Shown piece by piece: positions 19,745-49,800 of a DNA stretch of 64,000 nt. The stretch covers positions 153,328,001-153,392,000 of the forward strand of contig CM059431.1 in NCBI GenBank assembly GCA_030390025.1, read 5' to 3'. Source of the DNA: Squalus acanthias. Its lineage: Eukaryota. Position 1 is the stretch's first letter, and each line of letters opens with the position of its first letter. The notes under the pieces are model-generated. The model saw only the letters and a program-made list of their open reading frames with translations. It was not told where the DNA came from and made no database searches. The position numbers and the translations under genes are program-made.

Positions 19745-20560
19745 TATTGAATTTCTAATACTACTTCAAATGTTTATTTTATCAGACGTTGTGACTCCGT
19801 GGTATTCCATGATCAATAAAAGAACAATGTAATTGCTTGTTGCTTCCTTTGAAGTAATATTTTCAAAGTCGTCTTGTTTGCGTACTTTTTACAACTTGTA
19901 AATTAAAAACACTTCTCTAGTATCATCATGCATTTCTAATTTGCTTCAATTGATTTTTAACTTGGGACTCCACCTTTCAAGCTTAACGTTAGAACTATTT
20001 GTTCAGAAGGCATTTATTTTACTTGATGTCATTTCTTTAAAGCCTTCTGTAGGTATTATATTTACAATATGTTAATTGAAAATACTTTAACTCAAGTGTT
20101 TAATTGTTTTCTCGCTATTTGAATTAGTTGCATATTTAATGATGTTTCCTCTTTCTAAGTTTAACATAAATCTATTTTACGATAGGTATTTCTTACTTGA
20201 TGTCATTTTTTCAAAAGCACTTTGTTTTTTTTAATGTTCTGTGCACCTGTTCGACGTGTTAGATTATAACACTTTACTTGGGTCATTCCATTGTTTTTCT
20301 CCCAAACTCTGGACATAGAGGAACCTCCCAATGGTTTGCTTCAATAGGGCATTGTCTTTCACAATATCCCATTCCCATATCAAAGCTTGTGTTTACAGCT
20401 TTGTGTTAACAAACCATCATATCTCATAAGCCTGTATTGTGCCCTCAGCCTGTGTCGCCGAGGCTTTCAGACTTTTAAACCCAGTATGTCATTTATTAAT
20501 AATTTCAGAATTCTGTTTTTAGTATCGTGCATTTTTCTGAATCCTGGCTATTCCTTCACA
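19745..20560 (-). mobile_element. Partial LTR (U3 portion only) of the foamy-like family
   Basis: Ends in GGCTATTCCTTCACA like the other LTRs, then AGAC and satellite. Colinear with 63175-63977. The R/U5 half is missing. Confidence 0.85.
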
Positions 20561-23500: not shown

Positions 23501-23802
23501 ATTTAAAAGAGTTCCCTGAATAATGTGTCCCTGATGGTGAGACTCCCTCTTTAAAAGTGGTCCCTGATGGAGACACACCCACTTTAAAAGGGGTCCCTGA
23601 TGGTGAGACTTTCTTTAAAAGTGTCCCTAATAGGAATAATCTTTTTACGATCGGTCCTTGATAGAAATACTTTCTCTTTAAAAGTGGTCCCTGAAGCTGA
23701 AACACCCTCTTTAAAAATGGTCCCTGATGGTGAGACTCCCTCTTTAAAAAGGACCCCTGCAAGTGAAAATTCCTCTTTCAAAGGGGTCCCTGATGGTGAG
23801 AC
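20561..23802 (+). repeat. 33-bp satellite, forward, block 3
   Basis: Same monomer; ends at GGTGAGAC|TG, the LTR junction. Confidence 0.97.
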
Positions 23803-25213
23803 TGAAATAATTATTACCAGTCCTAGCCCTTTTCTGGCTACCCCGGATCAGGCGTATTCCCCAGAAGTTCACCTTTAACTGAAGTTAGAGTTAGCTGAAT
23901 CCTAATGACGCTTAATTTCTCTCCCTAAAGGAAAGGAACGACCTGAAGATGTTACCGTGCTCCAGATAGCACTTTTAATAAGTATAGCTAGACTGTAACC
24001 TTCCGGTTATTATGAGGGTCCGGAAAACTCCTCCAGAATTCAGCAACTCATCACCAAAGAGTGTACAGAGATTGATTTTGCGAGTTTGATACAGAGGTAC
24101 TATTTGAGACAATTCTAAAAAAACATAGATTTATTAAAGATTCGACATGTAGTTGCAGTTGTTGATTCATTCGTAACTTTAACAGTTCAAAATACAAAAA
24201 AACTTTCAATTCTTATCAGAGATCCTTATTCTCAAATCTTAACTTCGTTACATTTTTACATTTCTTACTTAGTCTTATTCCAGAATATCCACCAAAATCA
24301 AATACAAGTACCTTTGATCCCCGAGACTTAACGAGTTGAAAACTTTTACAGAGCTTGCCTCTGAAGTCTGAGAATCGCTTTGCCCCTTCCAGCGAATTCT
24401 GTCTTCCTATTTGTAATTACAATCTTTTATGCTCTTTCTCATTGGTATATCCTTTGAAGTTTTCTGCTGATGTAAGCTAATTATTTCTAGTCATTTTCCT
24501 GTTGACCCCTGCTTTTCTTACAATTAGTTCAGCTTGTAGTTTGCAGAATTATGTCTGCTGTGTAAGTGTTCGAATCTTATCATAAAAAACGGTTGCAACA
24601 GATGTATCTATTTGATGCCATTCTGACGAAAGTCTTCAATTCAATTATTATGTCACCTCAGCTGGTTGTATTATAGATCTCGTGTGTCCTCGGTGTTCCA
24701 AATTCAACACAAAAACAATGTGATGGCTGTTGCATCTATTGATGTCATATTTATGAAAGTCTTATGTTTATATATTTTTAGAACATGTAAATTAAAACCA
24801 CCTCAACTGGGTATCTCATTGTCTTCTTAGCAGCCTCAGTTGGTTGCAATAAATAATCGTGTCTCGTGATTCATTTGATGTCTCCTGTGTTTCATTTGAT
24901 GTCATATCTATGAAGGCATATGTTTCTTTAATGTTCTGTGTTTCATTTCACAAAGTGTTGGTTTATGACACCTAAACAGGGTATGGCTATTGTGTTTTTT
25001 CTCAAGCTACAAACTTTTGGGAACCTCTAACCTTCTGCTTCAATGAGTCTATTGTTTCAGTGTCAACAACTTAACTTATCTCAAAAGCCTACATTCTTTT
25101 TACAGCTTTTCCTTGTTGAGCCTTTCAGATTTCCAAGCCCAGTTTGTCATGTTCTAATCAGAATTATTTCATAGGATGGTGTATTTTTCAGAAATATGAC
25201 ATGTTCCTTCACA
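23803..25213 (-). repeat. 3' LTR of the foamy-like provirus (1411 bp)
   Basis: Direct repeat of 45390-46813, with TG...CA ends and a minus-strand AATAAA at 24130-24135. Preceded on the minus strand only by a degraded purine run (CAAGAGTAGTT). Confidence 0.9.
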
Positions 25214-25737
25214 AACTACTCTTGACCAAAAAATGCACTGGACCATCTAGACAGAGTGTGATCAATGTTACTAATAAGATTACAATAGCACATTAATTCC
25301 ACGTGATTCACAAACATGTGCTTCATTAAAATTCCTTTTAAGTTATTCTAGGACAATGTTTTGCCTTATTTTAAATTGAACACAATCAGCGAAATAACAT
25401 GTACTTAGAATGTGCAATCGGCAGATGTTCATTCCGTAGAGGTGAGTTATTCAAGGAGACATCATTTCGAACTAAATGTAGCTTAAGAACATAAGGACAT
25501 AAGAAATAGGAGCAGGAGTAGGCCAATCGGCCACTTGAGCCTGCTTCACCATTCAATAAGGTCATGGCTGATCTGATCCTAAACGTCAATCTACTATCAC
25601 AGAACCATCTCCTGAACCTAACAGAATTGGACACACGAAATAGGAGGAGGATCAGGCTACACGGCCCCTGGGACCGCTAGGCTACCCACAGGGCCATGAC
25701 CGATCCAAATATGGACTCATGTCCAAATTCCTGCCCG

Positions 25738-28701
25738 CTACCCGTAACCCTTAATTCCCTTTACTTCTAGGAAACTGTCTATTTCTGTTTTAAATTTATG
25801 TAATGATGTAGCTTCTACAGCTTTTTGGGGCAGCATATTCCATGGACCTACCATCCTCTGAGTGAAGTAGTTCCTTCTCATCTCAGTTTTGAAAGAGCAG
25901 CCCTTTATTCTAAGACTATGCCCCCTAGTTCTAGTTTCACCCATCATCGGGAACATCGTCCCCGCATCCACCCGATCCATCCCCTTCACAATCTTATATG
26001 TTTCAAAAAGATCGCCTCTCATTCTTCTGAACTCCAATGTGTAGAGTACAATCTACCCAACCTCTCCTCATATGTCCATCCCCTCATCCCCGGGATTTAC
26101 CTAGTGAACCTTCTTTGTACTGACTCGAGAGCAAGTATGTATTTTCTTAAGTATGGACACCAAAACTGTATGCAGCATTCCAGGTGCGGTCTCACCAATA
26201 CCTTGTACAACTGAAGCAATACCTCCCTATTTTTATATTATATCCCCCTAGCAATGAAAGCCAACATTCCATTGGCCTTCTTAATCACTTGCTGCACCTG
26301 CATACTAAACTTTTGAGTTTCGTGCACCAGGACCCCCAGATCCCTTTGCAGTTCAGTACTTTCCAGTTTCTTGCCATTAAGATAATAACTTGCTCTACTA
26401 TTTTTCCAGCCAAAGTGCATAACCTCACACTTTCCAGTATTGTATTACATCTGCCAAATCTCTGCCCACTTACTTAGACTGTCTATGTCCCCTTGCAGAT
26501 ATTTTATGTCCTCCTCACTCACTACTTTCCCTCCCATCTTAGTATCAACTGCAAACTTTGATAAGTTGCACTCGGTCCCCTCCTCCAAATCGTTAATATA
26601 GATTGTAAAGAGTTGGGGAACCAACACTGACCCCTGCGGAACACCACTAGTTACTGATTGCCAGTCTGAGAATGAACCATTTAGCCCAACTCTCTGCCTT
26701 CTGTTAAATAGCCAATCCTCTATCCATGCCAGAATATTACCCCCAATCCCGTGATTTTTTATCTTAAGCAATAATCTTTTGTGTGGCAACTTGTCAAATG
26801 CCTTTTGGATGTCTAAATACACCACATCCACTGCTTCCCCCTTATCCACCCTGTATGTTACTTCCTCAAAGAACTCCAGCAAATTTGTCAAACATGACTT
26901 CCCGTTCATAAAACCATGCTGACTTTGTCTTATTAAATTATGATTATCCAAATGTCCCGTTACTGTCTCCTTAATAATGGACTCCAAAATTTTACCTACC
27001 ACAGATGTTAGGCTAACCGGTCTATAGTTTCCAGCCTTCTGTCTACTGCCCTTTTTAAATAAGGGTCTTACATTAGCAGTTTTCCAGTCTGCCGGGATCT
27101 TTGTTGAGTCCAGAGAGTTTTGGAAAATGATTACCAATGCATCCACAATCCCTACCGCCACTTCCCTCAAGACCCTAGGATGTAAGCCATCAGGTCCAGG
27201 TGATTTATCCGCCTTGAGTCCCATTATTTTACCGAGTACCACTTCCTTTGTGATTTTGATCGTGTTTAGCTCCTCCCCCCATATAGCCCCCTGTTTGTCC
27301 AGTGTTGGGATAGTCTAGTGTCCTCTACTGTAAAGACTGATACAAAATATTCATTCAGTGTATTTGCCATCTCCATATTTCCCACCATTAATTTCCCGGT
27401 CTCATCCGCTAAGGGACCAACATTTACTTTAGCCACCCTTTTTCTTTTTATATAACTATAAAAACTCTTACTATCTGTTTTTATATTTTTTGCTAATTTA
27501 CTTTAATAATCTATCTTTCTATTGTTAATCAATCTTTTTGTTATTCTTTGCTATCTTTTAAAGTTTTCCCAATCCTCTATCCTCCCACTAGATTTGGCAA
27601 TCTTATAAGCCCTTGTTTTTAGTCGAATACTATCTTTAATTTCTTTACTAAGCCACGGATGACTGTCTTTTCTTTTACACCCTTTTCTTCTCAGTGGAAT
27701 ATATTTTTTTGGAAGTTGTGAAATAACTCCTTCAATGTACACCACTGATCATGTATCGTCTTACCCTTTAATCTATTTTCCCAATCCACTCTACTCAATT
27801 CCGCTCGCATACCTTCATAGTCTCCTTTATTCAAGCTTAGCACGCTTGTTTGAGATCCAACCTTCTCACCCTCTAATTGAATATGGAATTCATCCATGTT
27901 AAGATCACTCATTCCAAGGGGATCCTTTACTACCATTTTTAATTAATCCTGTCTCGTTACACAGGACCAGTTCTAAGGTTGCTTGCCCCCTGGTCGGTTC
28001 AACAACATACTGCTCAAGAAACCCATCCCTAATACACTCAATCAACTCATCCTCAAGGCAGCCCTGCCCAATTTGATTTGTCCAATTAAATGATAGTTAA
28101 AATCCCCCATAATTATAGATGTTCCCTTATTACAAGCCTCAACTATTTCCTGATTGATACTCCGTCCAACAGAGTTGCAACTGTTCGGAGGCCGATAGAC
28201 TACCCCCAGTAGTGTTTTTTTCCCCTTATTATTCCTTATCTCCACCCAAACTGTTTCATTATCATGATCTTTTAACCCAATATCATTTCTCTGTATTACA
28301 GTGATTACTTCCTTTATTAACATAGACAACCCACCTCCCATTCTTTCCTGCCTGTCCTTCCTGATCGTTAAATAACCTGGTATGTTTAATTCCGAGGCAT
28401 TGTCACCCTGCAGCCATGTTTCTGTAATTGCCAAAAGATCATACCCATAAGTAGTTATTTGTGCCATTAACTCGTCAATTTTGTTATGAATGCTACGTGC
28501 ATTCAGATAGAGAACTTTCAAATATGTTTTGTGAAATTTAGTTCCTGCTTTTGCCCTTTTTATTACTTTAGCTTTTACTCCATACCTTCTGCCCCTTCCT
28601 GACACTCTCTGGTTTTTAATTTCCCCACTACTACCTAATTCTATGACCTTCTCTATTTTCATTTTCATTATTTGCTCTCTAGGAACCTCCCCCCACCCCA
28701 C
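25738..28701 (-). pseudogene. CR1 ORF2 (EN+RT), frameshifted with stops
   Basis: Fragments 28042-28701 (YLNARS, ITETW, GDFN), 27691-27936, 27551-27745, 26445-27242 (NYRPVSLTS, GVPQGS, FAVD in place of FADD), 26238-26420 and 25738-26037. Confidence 0.92.
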
Positions 28702-28902
28702 CCACCACTAGATAGTTTAAATCCCTCTCGACAGCCCTAGTTATATGATCCGCCAGGACTCTAGTCCCAGCACTGGCCAAGTGAAGCCCGTCCCAACGGA
28801 ACAGCTCCCTCCAGCCCCAATACTGGTGCCAGTGTCCCAGGAAGCAAAACCCATTTCTACCACACCAGTCTTTGAGCCACTCATTTAACTCTCTAATTTT
28901 AT

Positions 28903-31292
28903 TTACCTAGCCAAATTCGATCGTAGCTCAGGTAATAATTCAGAGATTTTTACCCTTGAGGTTCTGTTTTTTTTTAATTTGACCCCTAGCTGCTCATACT
29001 CCTTTAACACAACCGGCTTCCTTGTCCTATCGATGTCGTTTGTACCAACATGGACCACGACAACTGGATCTACCCCCTCCCACTGCAAGTTTCTTTCCAG
29101 CCCAGATGAGTTGTCCTTAACCCTGGCACCGGGCAGGCAACACAGCCTATGGGACTCTCGCACTCGGCTGCAGATAACTCTATCTATTCCCCTAATAATA
29201 CTATCCCCTACCACTACAACATTTCTACTTACTCACCCCTCTTTAGAGGCCCCCCGTTCCACGGTGCTGTGGCCAGGTTGCTCATCCTCCCTGCTGTCCC
29301 TGCTCCTGTCCCCACTGTAGAATTCGCAAAATTATCGCGATTTTATAATAATAAGGAGACATAAAGTTTCGAATAAACAGCTTTATTTCAGCAGAATGCT
29401 GTCAGGTTTCAAAACGGACACAAACAGCCTATAAAATGGCCGCCACGCCTCGTGGCAGAAAGTTCTAGACTTTCAGTAGGCAGACAAGATGGCGTTTCAA
29501 TAAACATTTCAGCAAGATCGGACAGGACTCAGCACATTTGAGATAATGACATGACGTGATGGGTTTGCATTTTAAACATAAATACTGGAATCGGTCTTCC
29601 AGGTGCAAACAAGGGCTATTGTACTGAGCGATCAAGGACCCATCCAAAGACATTAATATGCAAAATCCCACGGCTCTACGATGAGAGAGCCGTTCGCGGG
29701 TACTCACAGCAATCATTTGGAAGCCCCAAAACCCCTCCAGGGAGACTACTAGCCGGTTCCACAATGGGAGAAATATTAACGGGTACTCAGACAGTTACAA
29801 GTGTCCCCGAAACCCATTAAAGACTGAGATCACCCCATACAAGATGTTTTGAGCGCCAAAACCTGACAAAAGATAGACATTAAGATTGGGCGGGAAAATA
29901 GGAATTACAGCACTATAACTGTAAAGTACAACCGTCCATCTTTCTCTTGCTGCTTTGACTCGCTGGAAGGCTGCTGAACTCTTACTCTCTTGCCTGACGA
30001 CTCTGGACTCTGATCCGCTAGGATCAACCTCGTGGCTTGCCGCGAAGATCTGTAGAGAACTGGGCTGTGAGGCCTGGAGGCGGGCGCACCATCCCGAGGA
30101 GTCGGTAAACGGTGTTGGAACCGAAGGACCGAGAGGAGATGAGATGAGATGAGATGAGAAGAAGACTACACGTGTCGCCGCGGTCAGTAAGCCCCGACCG
30201 CGCCTAAAAATATAAGGACCATTTTTCGAATTCTATCGGCTACTCCACAACTGGCCCGAGAAGACTATTCTTCGAGTTCTACCGACAACTGGTGTAGGAC
30301 ACAGGAAGACTCTTTTTTGAGTAGTATCAGAACTCCGAGGTCAACACAGATCTTCATGACAGCAGACGGTCCAGCCTGCTAGCCGGAGCAGAAGCGAGTA
30401 AACAAGTGGGGTACAGAGACCCCTGATCAACACGTGGATAGTCAGGTGCTGCGGTAAACACATCCGAGCAGAGTTTCGTAATTCTCCGAGTTATCACAAG
30501 TGGTGAGCATGAGTCTCGATCCTACAAATCTAGATTAGGACAGGTATTGATAGGGGAGGGTTTATGTTTTAAGGATAATTATAATGTGTGTCCCCTTTTA
30601 CGATGTGTCGTGCGCTCCTCGTTTCCCTAAACCTAGTTGCATAACTGTATGTAAGTTTGTACTGTCATTAATCTGTGCTTATGACATGTATTTCGTAATC
30701 TTGAATAATATGCAATAAAGATTATCCATTTCGCACTATTCAATCGGGTCTACCTGAGTTTTCTCTGCATTATTGCTCTCGCACCTAAGTCCAGTGTCAG
30801 AACCGCAAGGGCGAGTGGGTCGAACCACTCACAGGTGTCTAGTGTTACCAGGCTGGCTGGAGACCAGAACAGGCAACAAGGCCTAACCCCGCACTAGCAC
30901 CCAGGCTAAGCACAGAGCCACACGTCACCCCTTACACCACAGGGAGTAAGAACCTCGAACCTGTTGGACTAGAGCAAGGGCTGAGGCTCCTCCAACACAA
31001 CCTCCTGGATCCCCGTACCTGCCTCACTCGTAGTCACACCGTCCTGTCCCGGACCATGGGCTACATCTGAATTAATTAACTTCATAGGTGTGACCACCTC
31101 CTGAAACACAGTGTCCACGTACTTCTCCCTCTCCCTGATGTGTCGCAGTGTCTGAAGCTCAGACTCCAGCTCATCAACTCGGAGTTGGAGTTCCTGTAGC
31201 AGCAGACACTTGTCACAAATGTAATCACCGTGAGCCTCAATGGGATCCACCGGCTCCCACATCTCGCAACAGTAGCACATCACCTGCTCCAT
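28903..31292 (-). pseudogene. CR1 ORF1 (Cys-rich zinc finger/leucine zipper + SGNH esterase-like), split by a solo LTR
   Basis: 30969-31292 has CxCC...CxxC followed by Leu heptads (LQELQLRVDELESELQTL). 28903-29214 has VGDS, CLPGA and HVGTND, the SGNH blocks typical of CR1 ORF1. Confidence 0.88.
29316..30936 (+). mobile_element. Solo LTR (1621 bp) of an unrelated LTR element, inserted in CR1 ORF1
   Basis: TGTA...TACA termini and a 4-bp TSD CCAC (29312-29315/30937-30940). AATAAA at 30714-30719 suggests + orientation (tentative). No visible similarity to the foamy-like LTRs. Confidence 0.85.
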
Positions 31293-31879
31293 CCTATGTA
31301 ATTAATTAATTTGTTTTATTGTTAGATTTGGACACTCTCTGCCCGATTATAGATGGTAGTACCCCTCTAAATAATTCTATTTAAATTAAATCAATCCCAC
31401 TAAATTACGCCAGTTAAATGGTTTACCAACAGTCACTCTGCACCAGAAAGGCCTTATTAACTACAACCCACAGAGTTAAAGTTTGAAAAGAGCACCCTAC
31501 ACCCCACTCACCCGAACTCACACTTACCCAAACTCAGCACTCTCTGCTGAGTCGCACTCAGTGCTTGCTTGCACTAGCACTGGTCTTTTTATACTGTTTG
31601 TTTGTTTACAGCCAAATCAGTCACCCCTGCTGATTGATTAGAAAACTGTTTTACACTGCCTGCTGAGCCAATGTACTCCTACTGCACTGTAAACTTGTTT
31701 TACTCTTCTTAAACCAACATAATCCCAAATATTTAACTTTTACCCTTCACTTAAACTGCTCAAGTACTCTTATCAAGAATGATTTAAAGAGAACTAACAA
31801 TTAAAGAACTCTCACACTTAGCCAAACTCAGCACTCTCTGCTGACTCGCACTCAGTGTTTGCTCGCACTAACACTGGTC

Positions 31880-32192
31880 ACACGCTGTTCCTTCGATCCG
31901 ATGTGTGTACTGATTCTTGTTTTCATAAAGGTCTTGCCAGGCACTCAGTTGATTCCTTCTTCATCCACGATGTCTTCCTCCTTCATTGAAGCAACTCGTT
32001 AATCTTTCCTTGTTTCAGATGTTGCTTTTCGCGAATCCAATTCCTGAGGCTTTGCCAAGCATCGTGTGGAGGAGTCGGCGACACCGTCTGACTGACTTTT
32101 ATCAGTAGTTCGATCGCATCCATTTCCTGTGTCATACTCCAAGCTGGGTCTAGAAAGACAGTGTACGACTGCACCTTGTATTATTCCTCCAT
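31880..32192 (-). pseudogene. env: Possible env 5' remnant (leader region), cut off by the CR1 insertion
   Basis: A second frame starts at ATG 32192 (MEE*YKVQ...PPHDAWQSLRNWIREKQ) and overlaps the pol 3' end, where foamy env begins. Sequence similarity is weak. Confidence 0.4.
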
Positions 32193-35160
32193 TTCGGTAT
32201 CCCGCAGGACATCTTTTGAGATTGTCTATGGAGACAGTTTTAAGAATATGCTTGCCATTCGGTTAATTAATATGTATTTGAACTGTTCTTTCGTTAATAA
32301 CAGAATGTATTTGAACAGGTTTTTTCCACTTCGGTCTTAAACTAGGTTTTTGCTCGAACTTCTTTTCCTGTACCCATTCTCCTACTAGGGGTTTCCATGC
32401 TTTGTTTGTCAATCGTTTCTGCCTTTTTGCTTCCCTTATCCTCTGATCAATTTGATGAATCTCCTCTTTTACTTCTTTTTTTAAATCTAACTGTCACTGT
32501 CGGGTCAAGGACTCAGAAAGTGCAGAGGCAATAAAATAACTATGGGTAAGTGGTGTATTCATCTCAATTCCACACATCAGATAAAATGGGGTTTTAGGGG
32601 ACACTGTCCCTGATGCAGATGCGGGCACATTATTAAGTGATAGCTGCACCTCCGGAATAACGGTGGTCCACTTATTCCCCCTGAATCTCAACAGTTTGAC
32701 CAATACGTGTTTTACTTTCTGGTTTTTCCGTTCCACCAGCCCCACTGATATCGGATGACGTGGCGTGCTGTGCTCTAACCCAATCCCCCTTTGTTTGCAG
32801 TAGTCTTCGAAGACCTTGGAGACAAAGGCTCTGCCTTGATCGGAGTGTAAGATTTTGGGTGCACCAGCTTAAGTAATTATGTTAGAAATAGCCTTAGCTA
32901 GTGCGTTTTCTGAAACAATTTTTGTGGAGACCAGCCAGCAGAAGAAAGTGCATCCACCTACACAAACGAGAACATGTCTGTATCCCAAAGACGGGGGAAG
33001 TGGTCCAATAAAGTCAATAAAGATTTTTCCCCATTGACTCATCAGCTTTCACAGGAGCCAATGGTGGTGGCTTAATTAGTGATGACTTATTGGTTAACTA
33101 GCATGGCTCACAATTTGCCACGTATGTTTTACAGGCATTAAGCATGCCTGGCCACCAATATAAGGAGGTCAATTTGCAGAATGTTGTTCTGGCACCAGAA
33201 TGTGCTTGACTTATGTCATCTTGAGCTCCTTTTACAAGCTGTTGTCGTTTGTGTCTCGGGGGTACTCCTCGGTTTCCCTTGGGCAAATTAGTTAGCACAA
33301 TACCCGTACGGGTTCCGAGTAAAAGTACTTTGGTGGATATCCTGGTGGATTCTCTTTTGTTGGGTCTAATAGCTGAATCAGTTCCTCATCCTGATTAGCT
33401 GCCCGTTCTGCCCTAGTGATAACATTAATATTGGCATGACCCTCTCGAGGGGGGGTCAAGCAGACTAAACGTTTCGCTTGTTCGTCTGCAAGACTGTTTC
33501 CTTTTGAGCGTACTGTCCCAGTGGTATGCCCGTTCACAAGAATCACCTGACAATTCTGTTTCTCCATTCTCGATAGGAGAATGTCTTCCCACAATGACTT
33601 ATGTTTTATGGGTTTACACTTATGATTGGTAAAATTTGTTTGTTCCCAGAAAACTAGATCTTGGTTATCTCCTCTGTTATGGTAGTCACTATCCATAAAG
33701 ATTCGTGTGGGTTTAATAAGGTCTGACTTTTCTAAAGTATACCGTAGTGCTGCAGCTTCATCATACTGCGCTGTCTTATGGCCAAGGGGTATGGACAGTA
33801 ATTCTTCTGTATAAAAAGAATAGGAATCTCGAAAGGTCCCTACTACTATCCCCATCCCAGCTGAGGATTGTTGGGATGTCCCTTGTTTAATCGTCATTAA
33901 CGATCCATCACAGTAAATGACTTGATGGTATTATGTAAGCAGTCTCATAGGTATTTGTCTCATTCGCTGCTCCGTATCCTCATTCTCCATGATGGGGATA
34001 AGCTCTGTCCATTTCCGGGGAGAGGAATTTAATGATGAGTGTTGTATCATTCAAGTAAGATTGCCCATTTATCATATCAGATCTGGGTGGCTCTTTTTTC
34101 ATCAGAGGCCATCCTCAATACTGATCTTATATCGGTAATTTCAGTATAGATGGTAATGGGGTATTTCCCAGAAGGGTTCGTGCCTTGATGAGGCATTGGA
34201 CTACCATAGTCATGAACATTTATTTTTTAATGTACCTCCTTTCGACATTGAAAAAGTTACACAAATGGAACTGAATGGGCACTATGTTCTTTTCATTATA
34301 GAAAACTGCAACTGCCATTTTAGGTAATGACCTGAGACGAATATTGAGTGGAACTTGTAGGACCATCTGCTCCACGTCTATGGCTTTTCGTACCTTTCGG
34401 CATAATTGTTGCAATTTTGAGTAATCCTCTGATGAAAATATGAATGATCCTTTTGCTGCTTCGCCCACTCTAGCATACAGGGGTGCTGAGAGCTTGGCAA
34501 AGGTTGGCGTAAAGTATCGAGCAAAATTCTGGAGTCCTAAACTTGCTTGCAGATTTTTCAGAATTTTAGGATATTTAATGGAGGCTAATTTTTCTTTATA
34601 AAATTGAGTTAATCCTCTACCGAATCCAGTTATTCGCAGGCACAGAAAATCTACCTCTTCCCTAACTAGTTGACTCTTTTTTATGTTGATTAATTACCCA
34701 GCAGTTGTAAGTCTGGATAAAACACTATCAATGGCTTTCAAGTGCTCTTGGAGATTGTCATGTGACAGAGATATATCGTCCACATAAGAATTGACGTTAG
34801 GTAGGTATTTTAAATGGTCTATTTTGTGGACTGAAATGAGAACGGGGCTGTTTTGAAATTCCAAGGACAATCTGGTCCAGCAGTACTGATAATCATTGGG
34901 TCCAGTCATCGCTGTTTTTGGCCAATCAGTTTTTTCGATTGGATGTGACCAGAAGCCGTTTGCTGGACCAATACAAGATTTATATTTTTCCCTCGTGATT
35001 CCAGAGAGAAGGGCTGTGGAATTTTGCTGTTGTGCAGTATGTGGGGCTGTTATCTTATTTAAGGCTGTATAATCGACTAATAATCTGCAACTCCCATCTG
35101 GTTTAGCAACACCAAAGAATGGTGAATTAGTTCTAGATCCCATTTTGATTAAGACACCTT
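31999..35160 (-). pseudogene. pol: Foamy-like pol, 3' part: RT, RNase H, integrase
   Basis: RT: QGVLIK..NSP..KPDGSCRLLVDY, ANGFWSHPI, LPNVNSYVDDISLSHD. RNaseH: AGMGIV, SIPLGHKTAQ, KPIKHKSLW, GNSLAD. IN: AHSG..YWWPGM..CEPC, IDFIGPLPPS, PKILHSDQG, VERKN, WKPLVGEWVQE..SLRPKWKKP, TVSIDNLK. Many stops and frameshifts. Confidence 0.93.
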
Positions 35161-36369
35161 GGGGGAAAAATTCAGTCGAGCCCCGTTTGGGGCGCAAATA
35201 TCGTCCGGGCGCAAAAATTAGCGCCTGGCGCTAATTATCGCCACTGACTGGAAACTTCACTTTTAACGCCCCGGGAGGTGATTGGAGCGCTAAATCAGGC
35301 GCTGCACACCTGTCTTAAGGCGCAAAGGCCGAGGAGTGAGGCGCTAACTCAGAGCGCGAGCGCAGCGCAGGTGCTGCCAGTTAGCGAGGGAACACAGACA
35401 CACTGGCGCCGGCCAGTTCTTAAAGGGGGGGGGCGATCTTGCTTCCCAGCCACACCCTGCTCATTGCAGCCTTGAATCTCGGCCTGGAGAGACCTGTGAA
35501 TCCATTTTCCAGCCAAGGATGGAGAGGGTGAGAGAACGAGCTGAGCGCTTCACCGAGCGGGCCTTGGATGCTCTGGTTGGCGCGGTGGAGCGCCGAAGAC
35601 CAATACTGTACCCAAAGAGTGGCAGGAGGCCTTTGCCGCGCGACTACAGAAGAGTGTGGAGGGAGGTGGCTCAGCGCGTCTCCTCCAGGAGCATGGTGCC
35701 CAGGACCCATGTCCAATGCCGGAAAAAGTTCAACGACCTCACTCGGGTCGTCAGGGTGAGTGGCTTTTTTGCAATACCTCTCCATCCCTCCATCTCAACC
35801 TCACTCTATGGCCAGAGGGTCTTAAAACCACAATTAACAACACTCATCCAACACCTATGGCCCTTTCATGAAGCACACACACACATTCCATACTTTGCAT
35901 ACAGTAAGGGCTATTCACCTATGGGAGGCACATCAGGCAAGACCATGGCTGTATACAGTAAGGGCTATTCACCTATGGGAGGCACCTCAGGCAAGACCAT
36001 GGCTGTATATTTACTCAGACACCGTCCTTTTTCTTGCAGGCCAAGGTGGCGCATAATAGGAGACAGCAGCAACGGACGGGTGGAGGGCAGCCTCAGCTGC
36101 AACCCCTCAGCGATCTTGAGGAGCGCGTCCACAGGATTGTGGCAAGCCGGGTGATCAGTCCCGGTCCCGTCGCCACTGGAGACGGCGACCCCGTTCTGGA
36201 CAGCAATGGTAAGGTCATCACCTTTTTGTCCTCTGTCCTTCCACTTGTCCCTCACAACACCAGCCTTTGACACTTTCAATCCAACTTACTAACTCGCTGC
36301 ACTTATTCCTCCCTTACTGCCACCCTGTCCTCACGCCATAGCCACTCTTGCACCTCCCTGCTTTCAGAT

Positions 36370-39300: not shown

Positions 39301-40046
39301 CAGAGGGTTTGAGTTTAAGAACCGTGAGGTTATGCTGCAACTGTACAGGACCTTGGTGAGACCACATTTGGAATATTGTGTGCAGTTCTGGTCACCTCAC
39401 TATAGCAAGGACGTGGAAGCATTGGAAAGAGTGCAAAGGAAATTTACCAGGATGCTGCCTGGTTTGCGGGGAGGTCTTATGAGGAAAGATTGAGAGAGTT
39501 GGGGCTTTTCTCTTTAGAGCGGAGGAGGATGAGAGGCGACTTAATAGAGGTTTATAAGATGATGAGGGGGATAGATAGAGTGGATGTTCAGAGACTATTT
39601 CCTCGGGTAGAGGCAGCTGTTACAAGGGGGCATAACTATAAGGTGCATGGGGGGAGATATAGAAGGGATGTCCGAGGTAGATTCTTTACTCAGAGAGTGG
39701 TTGGGGTGTGGAATGGACTGCCTGCTGTGATAGTGGAGTCGGACACTTTAGGAACTTTCAAGCGGTTATTGGATAAGCACATGGAGCACATCAGAGTGAT
39801 AGGGAGTGTGATAGCTTGATCTTGGTCTCGAACAATGCTCGGCACAACATCGAGGGCCGAAGGGCCTGTACTGTGCTGTACTGTTCTATGTTCTATGTTC
39901 TATGTTGTATGACTTCCCCTTCGTAAAACCATGCTGACTTTGTCCTATTAAATTATGATTATCCAAATGTCCTGTTACTGTTTCCTTAATAATGGACTCC
40001 AAAATTTTACCTACCACAGATGTTAGGCTAACCGGTCTATAGTTAC
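36370..40046 (-). mobile_element. 5'-truncated CR1 LINE inside the Harbinger, split by a second CR1
   Basis: (GAACATAA)n tail at 36370, RT C-terminal ORF 36612-37523, continuing to 37790 and resuming at 39909-40046 (GNYRPVSLTS..QHGFTKGKS). Same family as 25484-31879. Confidence 0.92.
37791..39908 (+). mobile_element. 5'-truncated CR1 LINE of a different subfamily, with an almost open RT
   Basis: The RT frame is open from the junction to ~39470 (NYRPVSLTS, MDFSKAFD, GVPQGSVLGP, FADD), then one frameshift and a stop at 39817-39819. Distinct short 3' UTR and (TTCTATG)n tail. Confidence 0.93.
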
Positions 40047-41292
40047 CAGCTGAGGAGACGGGCCCTGAAGCTGCCAGTGGGATTGAAGCTGCAGCCGAGG
40101 AGGAAGAGGAAGCCGGAGCATCAGTGCCACTCTCTCCCGAGGAAGCCCATGCCGACACTGGGAACACGCCTTCCCTGGAGGGGAGCAGGGGGGAAGGGTC
40201 TGATGAGGGTGAAGCTCCAGGACCCAGCGCGCTGCAGCAACGCGATGGGGGTAGGGAAGCTCGGGGGCCTTCTCCCCGGAGGGAGAGTATGCCAGCGAGT
40301 CCTGCTGCACTGGACGCAGAGGAGGAGCGGCTGATCGCGGAAATGAACAGCAGGCGGTGGGCATGCACACTGAGCTCATGGCTGCAGTGGGTAGGGTGCC
40401 CGAATGCATTGAAGCACTGGCAAGGCGTGTGGAGCACTTCGCTGCAGCGCAGGCGGATGCGACACTGAACCTCAGTGCTGCAATTCAATCTCAGACTGCT
40501 CTCATGCAGACTCAGATTGAGGTCACGCGAGCACTGTCTGCTGCCATCCTCGCTGGTTCGTTCACATTTCCCCGGGGCTCCCACCGCTCCGCAGCAGGCC
40601 AGCAATCTGTGCTCCAGCAGATTGCTCCGGATGCTGAGGTGCTGCCCCGTGGGAGTGCCAGTGTGCCGGTCGAGCAGGGAGTTGCTGTCCTCGCTCAAGA
40701 TGACAGCATTCCTGCTGCCACCACTGTCACTTCTCCACTGCAGATGCCGACCGCCTGTAGGACAGACTGCTGCCGCCCATGCAGAGTTGGTGCAGTCTGC
40801 AGCCGGGACCTCCACGCCCAGAACTGGTCGAGGCCGTCCCTCAAGGGCATCTGCATTGTCAGGGCCTGACAGTCAGCAGCCTTCCACCAGCCTTGCTGCA
40901 GCCACTGAGGTCCCATTGAGGAGGAGCAGTAGGGTAAGTAGGGGGGAAGGGCGCACGGTAAGGAGTTCACCCTCGATGTAGGAGGTGTGACAAAATGCTG
41001 GTCATTTTTTTATTAAAGGCCGAGGTTCGTGGTCAAACTTTTGTTGAGTGTTTTGCACATGATCTCCAGGTTGTGAGAACCAGTTATGGTAATGACTGTT
41101 TTTTTGTGTTTATTTGTATGAGTTTGTCATGAAGAAATGACACACACAGAGTTTGTAAAATAAATAAGTTTTGGTACTCAAAATATACATGTTTGGTGTT
41201 TGGAATCATTGGTGCCTTGGAAGGCTTAGGGGTTGCGTGTTGGGTTCATTCATGCTGTTCTCAATGGCAGAAGCCATTTCCACAGCAGGGGC

Positions 41293-41391
41293 CTAGAAGC
41301 GGCTTGCTATCAGCCGCTGACGGACGGCCCTTGCAGTTTCACCATTGTGGGCCGCCCTCACGCCTTGGTGCTGCTGCTGATTATCCTCATC

Positions 41392-41422
<31 letters not shown>

Positions 41423-42453
41423 GGTGGTGCTCCAAGGCCTGGTGGCATTGGCTGGGTCCTGAGGATTGCCATGTTATGCAGCATGCAGCACACAACTACG
41501 ATGTTGGAAACTCGCTCAGGCGAGTACTGCAGGGCTCCTCCAGAATGGTCGAGACAGCGGAACCGTTGCTTGATCACGCCGATTGTGTGCTCCACGATGT
41601 TCCTGGTAGCTTGATGGCTCTCGTTGTACCGCAGCTCAGCAGGGGTGTTGGGCGTACGGAGCGGTGTCATCAGCCAGGTGCTCAGTGGATACCCCTTGTC
41701 CCCGATAAGCCAACCAACTGGCTGATGCGGTGCCTCGAAAAGTTCTGCCACAGTAGTCTGGCGCAGGATGAAAGCATCGTGGCAGCTGCCAGGATAGTGG
41801 GCATTGACAGCGAGTATCAGCTGTCTGTGGTCACAGACCAACTGAACATTCAAGGAATGGAACCCCTTTCTGTTCCGGAAATCCTCGGCATTCTCATGCG
41901 GAGCACGCAAAGCCACATGCGTGCAGTCAATGGCGCCCTGCACCATGGGGAAGCCCGCTATCCTCGCAAAGCCCAGAGCGCGTTCTTGCTGCTTGTCTGG
42001 GGTCATGGGGAAAGAGATGAACTCTCGTCTCCTTTTAAAGAGGGCATTTGTGACCTTCCTGATGCAGCAATGCACCGCGAACTGGGAGATATTGGCGATG
42101 TCCCCAACAGCAGATTGAAATGAGACAGTAGCATAAAAGTTCAGAGCCACTGTGACCTTCACTGCCACCGACAGAGACGTCCTGGACCTCAGTTGAGGCT
42201 GCAGATCTGGCTGCAGCAGGTGGCAGAGCTCAGTGACCACCTCCTTGCTGAAGCGCAGCCTTCGCAGACACTGCTCATGAGACATATGAATGTAGGAGAG
42301 CTGTTCACGATATACCCTGGGAGGGTAAGCTCTCCTGTACAGACGCCTGTTGGCCCTCCTCCGTCTGGCCATCATTGCCACTCTCTCTCTGCGTCTCTGT
42401 CTCCTCCGATTCAGCTGGCGCAGGACGACGCCCCCCATCAGTGCAGCCCCCAT
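41293..42453 (-). CDS. PIF/Harbinger (HARBI1-like, DDE_Tnp_4) transposase, open reading frame
   Basis: Uninterrupted ORF with GAIDCTH, FRNRKGFHSLNVQ, PGSCHDAFIL, GDKGY, YNESHQATRNIVEHTIG, RFRCL and CCMLHN. First ATG at 42453. Confidence 0.93.
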
Positions 42454-42646
42454 ATCTCTTAGCAAGCAAAGTTATGAAGGCCAGAAACCAAAGTACCAGC
42501 GAAGTTAGGATGAGTAGCCAAAACTACCTCACACAGCGTTGTCTCAATGCAGAAGTCTCTCTTTCTCTCTCTCCGAATCTCTCTCTCTCTCTCAGAACGA
42601 GTGGTGCAAAAATGTCAACCACAGAGAAAGACAGGAAGAGGCCCCC

Positions 42647-42791
42647 TTTAAATAGCGCCCCCCCCCAGCCCCACAGCGATTGTTAGCGTTCCACTCTTCC
42701 GGTCGTTGGATGCGCCAGGCGGTAAGGATGGGGGCGCCACTGAAATTCTGCTCGGGGCGCCACAAGGGCGTTGCACTCTAGTATGACGTCA
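42647..42791 (-). promoter_or_regulatory. Putative transposase promoter (CRE + TATA-like)
   Basis: TGACGTCA at 42784-42791 and TATTTAAA (minus) at 42647-42654, upstream of the ATG. Both are retained in the non-autonomous copy (~10288 and ~10424). Confidence 0.45.
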
Positions 42792-42963
42792 CAATCTGCG
42801 CGCGCAGTAGATCGCGGCGATAAAGTTTAGCGCCGCCGCAAAATGTCTAGTTAAGTTCGCGAGCGGCGCAAACATCGCTGCGCCCGGGCGCTAGCTGCTT
42901 TGCGCCCCATTAGCGCACTCTTAAGGCGCTAACGGGAGGCGCAACCAACTGAATTTTTCCCCC

Positions 42964-43560
42964 CTTGTTCTGTTAGTTCTTTGAGCGTTGTTAGAAGATC
43001 TATTTTTCCTTTGTGGTCCTGAATAGGCACTGTTTTTTAGGTTTGTTCCAGCCAGCATCAAGTGGGTGGGGTTTGATGTTTATCTTTCCACATTGATTTG
43101 GATGGCGTTGTAGATAAGGGTAGAATATATTAATGAGTTGCTCGAGGAGGTCTTTGCATCCACCCTCTAGGCAAGTTCGATCAAGCTGTGTCCGAACATG
43201 TTTTTCCCTGTCATCCTGGTCTGCGGATGCTTCTACAGATCTGGTTGAAATTTTAAGGTAATGTTTCATGTCTGGTTGTCCTATAATGAGGGAACAGGCC
43301 AATTGTGGTACCAGTCCGACATCTAGGGTCACCGTGATTCCATATATGGTAATAGGTATTTTGTAATAATTAATTATTTAGGTTTTGTCTTGTGTGAATC
43401 CCCCTAATGGAATTTTACAAATTGGGCTTCCCAAATCTGTCCTGTTAGTTTTTATAATTGTAGGATCTATTACAGTGTAATCAGCTCCCGTATCAAACAG
43501 GGCCTTCACTTGTGTGTTTGTGGTTAAGTTTGCCAGGGCATAGGGGAATTCAAGAGGCCT
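42964..43560 (-). pseudogene. pol: Foamy-like pol, 5' part: aspartic protease and RT N-terminus
   Basis: VKALFDTGADYTVI protease active site, then HPNQCGKINIKPH..PKKQ, continuing across the Harbinger insertion into RT. Confidence 0.88.
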
Positions 43561-45127
43561 TGAATCCTGGGACTGTCCATACTCAGGATCCTGAGTTTCA
43601 TTTGGTGCTTTGTCTTTAATTATTCTAACTGATTTTTGTTCCTCCCTCTTGGGGGTATCATGTTTTCCAGATCCCTTCGGGAGCTTGTCGGACCGTTTAT
43701 TATCTTGACGATCCTCCTGTTGGGGTGGACGTTGCTTCTGTTGGGAATTGTTTTGATAAACATTTCGGATTTCCTGGTAGCCCATCATGGCTCTCTGATA
43801 GTTTTGGCCAGTGTAAAAGCTATCCCCATAGGGAGTCCACTGTACTTCACTTTCGTTTTGAGGTCTAGCCCCTCTTCTATACTATCTTTCCGGGGAGAAA
43901 TCTTCCTCGTATTGTGGGCGAGTTGGGGGTGTAAACCTTCTGGAATACCCTCTTGGGGGTTCCCGAGCCACGAGCTTGTGTCTGGGCGGGGTGGACTTGA
44001 GACTTGGGTCTAAACAGTCCTTGTTTCTGAGTACCAAAGGTACCTTCTCCGGTTTTTATATCCCAAGTTTCTGATCTCATTATAGGTTTAGTTTGGGGTA
44101 GACCTAAGAGGTAATGATTTAATTGGATAATGCGATTGAAATTTTCCCATCTTTGTTGGTTATTTCGATAATCGTTTAAAACCCCCTCACAGGCAAGTTT
44201 GAGGGCTGTATTTTGGTATTGATTGGCCAGGCAACCATGGACAATGCCTCAGTTATCCTGTGTAAGTACATTGCCTAATCTGTAGGCAGCTACCAGCCCT
44301 TTAGTTGTGGCGGTATTAGTGAGTATTTCCATGATGGAACCCATTACAAGCCCTCCCTGTGTTGCCGTGAGAACATAGGCGTATATTTAAACCCATTTGT
44401 TAATGGGGGAATTATGTCTGAACTTAGTATCATTTGCAGTAGTTGCCTCAGGTGTGGGGCATTTTAATCTTGGCAAGAGGTTTCCAATTTATCAAGGTTT
44501 GTTAGAATCCAGCAGGTTCTTTCCCGGCTGGTGTTTCCCGGCTTACCACATATTGTGCAGATAGAGCGTAGGTTTACTTGTCCTTGGGGAGCAATGTGTG
44601 GTTGCTGGGTTTGGCTTACTGGACCAGTAAGCATTGCGCCACCAGCATTTAGATATGATTGAGCTCGTGCCTGTCGACATTGATTATAATGGATTCTAAG
44701 CAGTCTATATTTTTCTCGAAGATTCTGCTCATTTATTTCATCGTGAGCTTCCACTTCAACCGGAATCCATGTCCCGCGGGAGCCTAGGCAGCTCCTGGTC
44801 CTACTATTCTGCCATGGTTGCCACCACCTTGTTGGGCACCGTTCATTAGGCCTCCCAATTGTGCAGGTGTGCACGTTATCATTAAGGAATTCAGTGGATT
44901 TGGAATATCTGTTTCAGTATCCTACTGGATATTCTGTATCAACTGATTCTTGGGATCACATCAATCGTGCCATGAGTTCTAACTGCTCCATCGGCATCAC
45001 AGCCTCCTATTTCAAAAACTATCACTTGGTTTTGTGAAGGTAAAGAGATATAATTATTTCCCCTAATAAAGCAATCGTTTGAATTTCCTAATAAAAAGAC
45101 TTGGCCAATTACGACAGGGTTTGCCAT
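43560..45127 (-). pseudogene. gag: Foamy-like gag
   Basis: ATG at 45127 downstream of the PBS. Hand translation gives LRSICTICGKPGNTSRERTCWILTN and KGLVAAYRLGNVLTQDN*GIVHG...ENFNRIIQLNHYLLGL, resembling spumavirus Gag central domain motifs (IRSVTGEPPRNPREIPIWL; GVATAYTLGMML..YEILGL, recalled from memory). No CCHC knuckle seen. Confidence 0.82.
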
Positions 45128-45373
45128 TTCTTAAGGACCTAATCTCGGTTAGGTTTTAATATGAACTTTATAAGAAATTTCTAGACCTCAATGGTATATT
45201 GAGGGCGTTCTGATTTAAGTTGTACAAGGCCTGATCAGGGACTTGCTGTCTCTAGAGACTTAAGTCTGGGTCTTATTACCACTGTCAGTAAAACATTCAT
45301 CTATACATAACAATCTACAAGATGGATATAGATATAAATATAAGTTTAGGTTCTGTATCAACTCGTTAACACA

Positions 45374-45387
45374 CACGTTGGGCGCCA
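45374..45387 (-). promoter_or_regulatory. Primer binding site, tRNA-Lys1,2 type
   Basis: Minus strand reads ...TTTCA GT TGGCGCCCAACGTG, matching the first 14 nt of the Lys1,2 PBS used by foamy viruses, 2 nt after the LTR end. Confidence 0.9.
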
Positions 45388-45389
45388 AC

Positions 45390-46813
45390 TGAAAGGATTA
45401 TTATTAGTTCTAGCCGTTTTTGGGCTACCCTGGATCAGCCGTATTCCCCAGGCGTTCACCTTCAACTAAAGTTAGAGACGCTTAATTGGGTCTAGAGGTC
45501 CAGACTATCTCTCCCTATAGGAAAGGATCGAGCTGAAGATGTTACCGTCCTCCAGATAGCACTTTTAATAAGTTTAGCTAGACTGTGACCTTCCTGATAT
45601 TATGAAGATTTGGAAAACTCTCCCAGAATTCTGAAACTCCTCACCAAAGAGTGTACAGAGATTGAGTTCGCGAATTTGATACAGAAGTACTGTGTCAGAC
45701 AATTCTAAAAAAATATACAGATTTATTAAAGAATCAACATGTAGTTACAGTTGGTGATTCAGTAGCAATATTAACAGTTCAAAATACAAAAAGCTTACAA
45801 TTCTTATCATCAGTGCTCCTTATTCTCAAATCTTAACTTCTCTACATTTTTACATTTCTTACTTAGTCTTATTCCAGGACATCGACCAATATCAAATACC
45901 TTGATACCCGAGTCTTAAAGAGTTGAAAACTTAAAGAGCTTGCCTCTTAAGTCTGAGAACAGGTTTGCCCCTTCCAGCGAATTATGTCTTCCCATTTGTA
46001 AGTTCTATATTTATACTCTTTCTCAGTGGTATATCCTTTGACGCTTTCTGCTGATGTAAGTTAATTATCGCTAGTCATATTTCTGTTGACCCCTTCTATT
46101 CTTACAGTTAGTTCAGCTTGTAGCTAGCAGAATTATGTCCCCTCCTTTAGGTGTTCCAAGTTCATCATAAAAAACGGTTGTAACAGACGTGTCTATTTGA
46201 TGCCATTCTTACGAAATACTTCTATTAATTTCCTAAGTCACCTCAGATGGTTGTATTATAGACTTCGGGTGTCCTAGGTGTTCCAAGTTCCACACAAAAA
46301 CAATGTGATCGCTGTTGCATCTAGTGATGTCATATTTATGAAAGTATTCTTTTTGTATCTTTTTCCAATATGTAAATTAAAAACACCTCAACCGGGTATC
46401 TCATTGCCGTCTTTGTTACCTCAGTTGGTTGTACCACAAACTCCTGCCTCCGTGTTCAAAGCTTAACATAAAAATGATTTGATGGCAGGTGTTCCTTTTA
46501 CTTGATGTCATTTTTACAAAGGCACATGTTTATTTAATGTTCTCTGTTTTCTTTCAAATTATTGGTTCAAGACACCTTCAACTGGGTATGTTATTGTGTT
46601 CATTTCCAAGGCTTCAGACATACGGGAACCTTTAAACTTCTGCTTCAATGAGGCTATTGTTTGAGTGTCAACAACTTTTTTTAATCTCAAAAGCCTGTAT
46701 TCTGTTTACAGCTTCTGAGGTTTTCAGATTTGCAAGCCCAGTTTGTCATGTTTAATTAAGTCAGAGTATTTCATAGAAAGGTGTATTTTTCTGAATATGG
46801 CTATTCCTTCACA
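45390..46813 (-). repeat. 5' LTR of the foamy-like provirus (1424 bp)
   Basis: Minus strand starts TGTGAAGGAATAGCC and ends TTCA next to the PBS. TATAAA at 46010-46015 and AATAAA at 45722-45727 (both minus) imply a long R region. Confidence 0.92.
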
Positions 46814-49800
46814 TCCCCATCAGAGACCGCTTTTAAAGAGAGAGTCTCGCCAGCAGGGACCTGTTTTAAAGAGAGAGTCTCAACTACTGGAACCCCTTTT
46901 CAAGAGCGTGTTTCAGCATCAGGGAGCACTTTTAAAGAGATAATCTCCACATCATGGGCCCCTTTTAAACAGGGAGTCTCAACATCAGGGAGCCCATTTA
47001 AGGAGGGTGTCTCATCATCCGGGACGCATTTTAAAGAGAGAATCTTGCCATCAGCGAACAGTTTTAAAGAGGGACTCTCACCAGCAGGGAATGCTTTTAA
47101 AGAGTGATGCTGACCGTCAGGGAACTCTTTTAAAGACAGAGTCTTTCTTTCAGAAACCCCTCTTAAAGAGTGAGTCTCAACCTATTGGTCCCATTTTGAA
47201 GACAGAGACTTTCTATCTGGGACACATTTTAAAGAGGGCATCTTTCTATCAGGGACAATTTTAATGAGAGAGTCTCAACATCAGGGACCACTTTTAAAGT
47301 GAATAACTTTCTATCAAGGACCCCTTTCAAAGAGGTTTTCTTTCTAAGAGGGACCCATTTTTAATGAGAGAGTCTCACCATGAGGGACCACATTTAAAGA
47401 GGGTGTCTCACCATCAGGTAGCCCTTTTAAAGAGGGATACTCACCTTAAAGGATCCCTTTTAAAGAGGGAGTCTCGCCATCAGGGATCCCTTTTAAAGAG
47501 GGATTCCTTCTATCAGGGAGAACTTTTAAAGATGGAGTCTCCATATCAGAGTCCATTTTAAAGAGGGGGTTATTTCTATCAGGGAGCACTTTTAAAGATA
47601 GTTTTACCTGCAGGGTCCCCGTTTAAAGAGTGAGTCTCACCATCAGGGATTCCTTTTAAACAGATAGTCTCACCATCAGGGACCCCTTTTAAAGCGGGAG
47701 TCTCACCCTCGGGGACCCTTTTTAACGAGGGAGTCTCACCATCAGGTACCATTTTAAAGAGGCTGTTTCAGCATCAGGGATATATTTAAAAGATAGAGTC
47801 TCACCATCAGGGGCCCATTTTAAAGAGGGAGCATCCCTTTCAGTAACGCCTTTTAATGAGAGATTCAGTCCACCAGGGACCCTTTTTAAAGAAGGACTTT
47901 CACCATCAGGGACACCTTTTAAAGAGGATTTATTTCTATCAGGCAATCCTTTTAAAGTAAATCTTCCTATTAGGGACAATTTTTTGAGATGAGAGTCTCA
48001 CAATCAGGGACCCCTTTTAAAGTTTCGAGTGTCTCCATCAGGTACGCCTTTTAAAGAGGGTGTCTCCCCATCTTGGACCCCATTTAAAGAGATAGTATCA
48101 CCATCTGGGAACGCTTTTAAAGATACAGTCTCTACATCAGGGAACACTTATAAAGAGAGAGTATCACCATCAGGGAAAACTTTTAAAGAGAGTGTCTTTC
48201 TATCAGGGACCCCTTTTAAAGAGAATCTTCCTATTGGCATACCTTTTAAAGAGGGTGTTTTAGCATCAGGGATTCCTTTAATTGGGGAGTCTCACCAAAA
48301 GGGATCCCTTTTAAAGAGAGAGTCTTTCCATCAGGGAACCCTTTTAAAGAGGGAGTCTCACCCTCGTGTACCCATTATAAAGAGAGAGTCTATCTATCAG
48401 GTACAACTTTTAAAGAGAGAGTTTCGCCATTAGGGACCCCAGTTAAAGAGGGAGTACCCCTGTCAGGAATGTCTTTCAAAGAGTAAGTTTCACCATCACG
48501 GACCCCTTTTAAAGAGAGAGTCTCATCATCAGGGATCGCTTTTAAAGAGATAGTCTCTCCATCAAGGACACCTTTTAAATAGAGAGTAACACTATCAGGG
48601 ACCGCTTTTAAAGAGGAAGTCTCACCATCATGGAATCCTTTTAAAGAGGTTGTTTCAGCATAAGGGATTCCTATTGAAGAGTGAGTCTCACCATCAGGGA
48701 CCTATTTTAAAGAGAGAGTCTTACCATCAGGGACCCCTATTTACGAGAATGTCTTTCTATCAAGCACCGCTTTTAAAGAGGGTGTATTTCTATCAGTGAA
48801 TCCTTTTAAAGAGGTAGTGTCTCCATCAGGGCCAACATTTAAAGAGGGTGTCTCACTATCAGGGAACCATTTATAGAATTAGTCTCCCCATCAGGGAACA
48901 CTTTTACCGAGAGTATCTTTCTATTAGGGGCCCATTTAAAAGATGGAGTATCACAATCAAGGAAACCGTTTAAAAAGAGAGAGTCTCACCTTCAGGGACC
49001 GCATTTAAAGAGATGGTCTCACCAGCAGGGATGCCTTTTAATGAGAGAGTATCACCATCAGGGACACCTTTTAAAGAGGGAGTCTCACTATCAGGGACCC
49101 CTTTAAAGACGGTGTCTCATATCAGGGACCACTTAATAAGTGGGAGTCTCACCAATAGGGACACCTTTTAAAGAGTGATTCTCACCATCAGGAACCCCTT
49201 TATAAAGATAGTCTCCCCATTGGGGACCCCTTTTAATGTAGCTCACCATCAGGGTCCCCTTATAAAAAGCGTGTATCAGCAAAAGGGACTCATATTAAAG
49301 AGGGTGTCTCACCATCAGGGACCCCTTTTAAGGAGATTCACCAGCAGGAACGCATTTAAAGAGAAAGTCATTCTATTAGAGACACCTTAAAATGGAATGT
49401 TCCTAGCAGGGACACATTTTAAATAGAGAGTGCCTCCATCAGGGACCCCTTTTAAACAGGGAATCTCACAATCAGGGACCCCTTTTAAAGAGAGAATCCC
49501 AACATCAGATACCCTTTTAAAGAGGGAGTCTTTCTATCAGGGAGCCTTTTTAAGAAGTGATTTCTCACCATCAGGAATCCCCTTTAAAGTGTGAATCTTA
49601 CGCTCTGGGACCCCTTTTAAAAAGTGAGTCTCACCATCAGGGACCGCTTTTAAAGAGATAATCTACCCATTAGGGCTCCCTTTGAAGAGGGAGTCTCACC
49701 ATCAGTGGCCCATTTTAAAGAGAGAGTCTTTCTATCAAGGATCCCTTTTAAAAAAGCGTTTTTCTATCAGGGAAACCAGAAAGAGAGAGTCTCCCCATTA

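Follow-up and report, generated by a model that had tools for sequence, protein, structure and literature searches.

Why does a tandem satellite change strand exactly at the two ends of an endogenous retrovirus (ERV)? The question is raised by a 64,000-nucleotide stretch of the 3.7 Gb Squalus acanthias genome, C7:153328001-153392000, hereinafter designated the window (C7 coordinates are those of contig CM059431.1). Tandem Repeats Finder (TRF) indicates that a 33-bp satellite occupies much of the window, and this satellite directly adjoins both long terminal repeat (LTR) termini of a provirus of 23 kb. The strand of the satellite was mapped with a 23-nt motif of the unit, with up to 5 mismatches tolerated. 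All 375 motifs to the left of position 23803 are forward and all 298 motifs to the right of position 46813 are reverse, in agreement with a first-pass annotation, which claimed that satellite polarity flips exactly across the provirus. The provirus is very probably a recombinant of two independent insertions that faced opposite ways relative to the satellite unit.

The same annotation stated that the provirus lacks a matching target-site duplication (TSD), and indeed its flanks, AGAC on the left and TCCC on the right, agree at only one letter in four. The mismatch contrasts with the rest of the family, where a TSD is the rule: among 25 dispersed LTRs, 22 were assessable, with an exact 4-bp TSD in 17 and one mismatch in 5. 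A solo LTR of the family in the window, 24–25% distant from both proviral LTRs, has the perfect AGAC duplication already noticed in the first pass. The AGAC phase of the 33-bp unit is used by several unrelated LTR lineages, all antisense to the forward strand (window positions 18482, 20560 and 23803; L072, L086, L133 and L185).

The two proviral LTRs, hereinafter designated A (left, 3' LTR) and B (right, 5' LTR), are 14–15% apart; LTR-LTR distances in dispersed proviruses are 1.3–4.5% (10 comparisons, several partial; 4 in a separate set). Raw divergence is not evidence of recombination, because a true pair embedded in the satellite reaches 11.8%. This pair belongs to a genuine provirus with TSD at C7:152.985-152.992 Mb (L192:4682 to L193:2320), which is either older or mutating about twofold or faster within the array. 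The indels on the U5 side (the unique 5' region of the LTR) do not count either, because they are late, private deletions. Specifically, the left LTR lacks 20 nt and the right LTR lacks 18 nt; the 20-nt deletion is found in 1 and the 18-nt deletion in 5 of 73 aligned LTRs, and an older paralog of the provirus (C3463a, described below) has neither. Thus, the many substitutions and reciprocal indels to which the first-pass annotation appealed are both present, but neither weighs as evidence.

Sites that are polymorphic across the family separate the two LTRs. The A clade (three copies) and the B clade (six copies) differ by 96 fixed differences, and at 40 of these, which form linked blocks across the whole LTR, each state reaches a frequency of at least 15% in a set of 60 independent LTRs. 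The corresponding counts are 4–7 in four sister pairs, 2–7 in three paralog pairs and 35–79 in 60 random pairs. No rare state is common to A and B, whereas controls share 14–54. In a panel of 81 LTRs, 56 of the 206 differences of the window pair are polymorphic family-wide, versus 12 of 165, together with 63 shared rare states, for the true and equally old provirus embedded in the satellite, and 3–8 for 11 other true pairs. Consistent with these counts, a careful tree places the six B LTRs, with a single non-A sister, in a seven-row clade with support of 98/93 that cannot contain the three A LTRs. The LTRs are therefore not sisters. Because the two LTRs of a provirus are identical when integrated, as stated in the cited text (PMC3228705), the element is a chimera. 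The warning that LTR-LTR dating would be invalid here holds for the same reason, namely that the LTRs are non-sister. Raw LTR distance cannot reveal such a failure in this region, with a true pair 11.8% apart, while polymorphic-site counts can.

Non-sister LTRs, the missing TSD and the flip together support the origin suggested in the first pass, a recombinant of two oppositely oriented proviruses. Insertion A, antisense to the satellite unit, and insertion B, in the sense orientation, would have undergone one ectopic crossover within their internal regions, which would have linked the 5' half and flank of B to the 3' half and flank of A. Two insertions in one array are unremarkable, since the phase of A is used by several other LTR lineages. 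The viral backbone of the chimera is collinear, and the same junction is present in four places. The crossover would be older than a burst of segmental duplication (copies 3–8% apart) and older than the insertions of a long interspersed element (LINE) and a Harbinger transposon, and copies of the chimera would later have recombined again with other proviruses.

One copy, C3463a (C3463:63296-72090; 8.8 kb), reproduces both junctions, with their flanks and the flip, at an identity of about 92% and lacks the nested insertions. Two remnants on C7, one at 153.44 Mb that keeps the 3' LTR and one at 152.88 Mb that keeps the 5' LTR, match at 95–97%, and both flip. The flanking satellite is also paralogous (0.82–0.96, against 0.73–0.77 in unrelated stretches). 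Judged from these alignments, the chimera is an old duplicated event, copied in four places. Because the paralog is continuous across both the LINE and the Harbinger insertion sites, the flip belongs to the viral backbone and not to a nested element.

Two further groups of relatives resemble the parents of the chimera. T2 (two copies on C1021 and one on C2450; L082-L084) has the 5' junction of B, one satellite orientation and an in-phase GAGA flank. T2 as an intact parent B is disfavoured: 86 of the 241 differences of its own LTR pair are polymorphic, indicating that the pair is non-sister, and the 18-nt deletion occurs in the window, in C7c and in each of the three T2 copies but not in C3463a. 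The near-TSD GGGA/GAGA beside non-sister LTRs is a deceptive sign of an intact provirus. Rare states in gag group the window with T2 at 11 sites, versus 4 and 4 for the other groupings, and the 5' LTR sites, at 2, 1 and 1, do not discriminate between the groupings. T3 (C3463:131439-143553; L065-L066) has the 3' junction of A. As parent A it was rejected, being a young recombinant with another provirus, Y (C3245, C394 and C3481): 5' of a point at ~44.1 kb it is 1.5–3% from Y, and 3' of that point it nests with C3463a. Y survives in several duplicates (L111, L113, L114 and L126) with sister LTRs 4% apart, and T3 joins satellite to non-satellite DNA, forming an edge of the array. Mapping of rare states against 33 dispersed proviruses matches T2 to the chimera from the 5' end to ~43529-43224, and T3 from ~44050 onward; where T2 and T3 overlap, the distances among all copies are those of paralogs. 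T2 and T3 most likely descend from the chimera and did not give rise to it; for T2, this is supported by its non-sister LTRs, the distribution of the 18-nt deletion and the gag sites. At this locus the strand of the satellite itself flags recombination between proviruses, and three successive chimeras can be read from a single genome.

Several observations weigh against an origin by crossover between A and B. The three T2 copies carry the 5' junction of B together with the in-phase near-TSD, which the model leaves unexplained. An approximately unbiased (AU) test does not reject A and B as one clade (p 0.395; the quick tree used was suboptimal), the two window LTRs served as the queries that gathered the LTR panel, and a single indel adjoins about 10 of the 40 polymorphic A/B sites, which do not count as independent. 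The pattern searches and the fetched relatives yielded neither of the parents intact and no reciprocal product, and subfamily-marker scans placed no crossover point, with too few A-type proviruses. Finally, when the two flanks are abutted, they fall in exact register on a 7-bp quasi-palindrome of the unit, for which the chance expectation is about 1 in 33.

The best-surviving alternative is that one provirus with matching TSDs had an LTR and part of its body replaced by gene conversion from another copy, and that the flip and the loss of the TSD arose in a separate event at the LTR edge; in one variant, the T2 form is parent B with a converted half. The single satellite orientation and in-phase near-TSD of the T2 copies (C1021 twice, C2450) fit this explanation, and the AU test does not reject a clade of the B 5' LTR and the T2 3' LTR (p 0.39). 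It requires, however, two events that end exactly at LTR termini, and the T2 pair is itself non-sister. T2 also nests inside the copies of the chimera by the shared deletion, and the gag sites favour the grouping of T2 with the window. We consider gene conversion improbable.

It is more improbable still that a single viral DNA integrated aberrantly, with its ends in two monomers, or bluntly at a fold-back switch, and that its LTRs are simply old sisters. The register of the flanks on the quasi-palindrome, the abundance of element-free strand switches (11 of 19, see below), the 11.8% divergence of the true satellite provirus and the AU result for A and B would suit such an event, but sister LTRs cannot differ at 40 polymorphic sites across the whole LTR without any shared rare state, and we regard this explanation as largely refuted. 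An assembly mis-join of two repeats is scarcely credible. In its favour, an N gap lies 5 kb to the left of the window, the element is not spanned by any read and, in the public-run data, which consist of short contigs only, no listed piece bridges either junction by 31 letters per side (share at most 0.27). Against it, the window sequence contains no N, and the same chimera and flip recur on a separate contig and in the two C7 remnants.

Recombination between A and B leaves the physical layout to be considered, as the first-pass annotation called the provirus an ERV-mediated inversion breakpoint. A crossover between A and B would flip the satellite whatever the layout. Had both been in an array of one polarity, an inversion would have resulted, accompanied by a reverse-to-forward junction as its reciprocal. 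With a pre-existing switch, a duplicate or a different array separating A from B, the product would be a deletion, an unequal exchange or a translocation, and no partner would survive. The chances of a non-reciprocal outcome, either a deletion or unequal exchange at a switch that was already there or one between arrays, are about even; a true inversion that later lost its partner junction is possible but less likely. Thus, the change of flank orientation across the element stands, while the inversion itself is not established, with no reciprocal junction found in the pattern searches and with 11 of 19 switches free of any element.

The reciprocal junction was sought with three junction-pattern searches and was not found, although the sensitivity of the searches is partial and the partner may have been lost through later rearrangement. 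The B3-type pattern gave 30 matches (35 for the control), and none of the 16 fetched is an LTR-satellite junction. The A5-type patterns gave 6 and 52 matches, and among the 49 of 52 examined none is lineage A in satellite; 11 A5-type matches within satellite are 72–79% from A, none of them showed a primer-binding site (PBS), and several of their LTR ends were not located. In the LTR DNA searches, 40 of 6968 and 40 of 5906 candidates were scored. One candidate, C7:152876374 (+ strand, 95%), was rejected as a duplicate of the same 5' junction. No reciprocal provirus is present at the neighbouring switches of any of the four chimera copies.

Three arrays were mapped for strand, and they contain 19 switches. 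Besides the 11 element-free switches, four are copies of the window chimera, and one each coincides with a Harbinger pair, a miniature inverted-repeat transposable element (MITE), a LINE and another proviral fragment. The Harbinger pair consists of two copies that abut in opposite orientation exactly at the reverse-to-forward switch that ends the reverse block of the window (C7:153396613-153402403; L071:4613-10000, L093:1-403), and is a candidate for a transposon-made inversion junction. At a second provirus-associated switch (L093:3201-5117), a 3' fragment of another provirus is joined directly to forward satellite, which is followed by reverse satellite. Small satellite inversions of 300–750 bp have element-free junctions (L134:5417-5734, L135:155-463, L188:2681-3023 and 6557-6907, L070:1592-2332), several of them at the TTTAAA or GAGACTC palindromes of the unit.

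On a broader and doubtful reading, foamy-like proviruses repeatedly serve as hubs of exchange and in this way shape the strand architecture and the edges of the satellite domain. In that case, one crossover would have created a convergent boundary, which was then copied at least four times and took part in two further recombinations, with the T2 recombination restoring one polarity and T3 joining the array to non-satellite DNA. Five of the six large forward-to-reverse boundaries seen are on proviral remains, though four of these are copies of one event. If this reading is true and the domain is centromeric, the shark proviruses would be a retroviral counterpart of the cichlid centroids discussed below.

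The provirus lies on the minus strand, and about 14 of its 23 kb are later insertions (Table 1). Its order is 5' LTR, PBS, gag-pro, reverse transcriptase (RT), RNase H, integrase, a short untranslated stretch and 3' LTR, with all genes broken. Among PDB structures, the RT comes closest to Peptidase A9/RT and Pr125Pol chains (E 8e-38 to ~1e-36), with Ty3 at 1e-12. The PBS is presumably of the tRNA-Lys type, and the gag-pro and leader region is common to the T2 copies down to ~43529-43224. In the window copy and in every fetched relative showing that stretch, no env or accessory genes are present, and integrase is followed by ~270–310 nt and then the 3' LTR. Because integrase directly precedes this short stretch and the LTR, the element is classified from its sequence as an env-less foamy-related ERV, not a complete foamy-like ERV (FLERV).

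Table 1. Positions of the provirus, its nested insertions and the surrounding satellite in the window.
Feature	Position	Strand	Remarks
33-bp satellite, forward block	1213..23802	+	Broken by LINEs, MITE, LTRs; TRF, motif scan
Solo LTR, different subfamily of the same ERV	18482..19615	-	Perfect AGAC TSD
Left flank AGAC	23799..23802	+	Satellite phase also used by several independent LTR insertions
3' LTR, lineage A	23803..25213	-	
Decayed polypurine tract and short 3' untranslated stretch	25214..25484	-	No env between integrase and LTR
Later LINE insertion	25485..31879	-	Holds a further insert at ~29316-30936; C3463a lacks the LINE
Broken pol: RT, RNase H and integrase remains	31880..35160	-	Pfam RVT_1, RNase_H, rve; many stops and frameshifts
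Later Harbinger DNA transposon	35161..42963	.	Terminal inverted repeats, 3-bp TSD, genes for Myb/SANT and DDE_Tnp_4; not present in any examined paralog
Broken gag-pro and leader	42964..45389	-	Pfam Spuma_A9PTase E 3.5e-4; PBS ~45372-45389
5' LTR, lineage B	45390..46813	-	
Right flank TCCC	46814..46817	+	No match to left flank
33-bp satellite, reverse block	46814..62700	-	Extends to C7:153396608; TRF, motif scan

The LINE within the provirus is one that we take to be CR1-like. The Harbinger transposon retains an open transposase frame of 392 amino acids and contains nested LINEs at ~36370-40045. Elsewhere in the window, a young LINE (6347-9748) has copies of 98–99% identity nearby, and a 598-amino-acid RT open reading frame without stops (59242-61330; RVT_1), with a GIY-YIG-like tail recognized by eye, is inserted in satellite and probably belongs to a Penelope-like element. 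Outside the window, two LTRs of the ERV family are inverted relative to each other about 190 bp apart (C16:77066778-77069541), and tandem proviruses with a common LTR are present at L121 and L145.

The event belongs to a class that is already known, inter-proviral ectopic recombination, and involves no new mechanism. Recombinant HERV-K HML-2 proviruses with discordant LTRs and mismatched TSDs were reportedly described by Hughes and Coffin in 2001 and 2005. A literature search listed no chimeric provirus located where a satellite switches strand, including for the shark satellite, with subscription papers outside its coverage. One report, in its cited portion, describes recombinants with LTRs of discordant ancestry and TSDs that do not match for HERV-K and for the gibbon SERV-K/MER11 provirus 10_73510506-gib (PMC11379458). 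Like these, the shark chimera has LTRs of discordant ancestry, a mismatched TSD and flanks from two original sites. Unlike them, as far as that text describes them, it derives from a foamy-like ERV, is flanked by a tandem satellite whose orientation keeps a record of the event, and was duplicated and recombined again; the reciprocal locus was found for the gibbon recombinant and none was found for the shark chimera (PMC11379458).

Compared with FLERVs of fish and sharks, as portrayed in the cited excerpts (PMC5210030, PMC5512871), the shark element has the same long LTRs, a Lys-type PBS, a 4-nt TSD, a GGGTG motif at the junction of polypurine tract and LTR in the paralogs, an A9 protease and a foamy-type RT. 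It differs from them in having no env or accessory genes between integrase and the 3' LTR. Small retrotransposon-mediated inversions in deer mice, according to the cited summary, likewise reflect ectopic retroelement recombination in repeat-rich duplicated regions; they were called between assemblies, whereas the shark locus presents one junction type and an inversion is not shown (10.1101/2024.05.29.596518). Measured against the account of cichlid centromeric 'centroids' in the cited passages (PMC13652916), the shark copies are decayed and irregular, most switches are element-free, and nothing at the locus points to a centromeric role or to a regular inverted pair. Like the centroids, however, the shark locus consists of satellite blocks of alternating orientation separated by elements derived from transposable elements.

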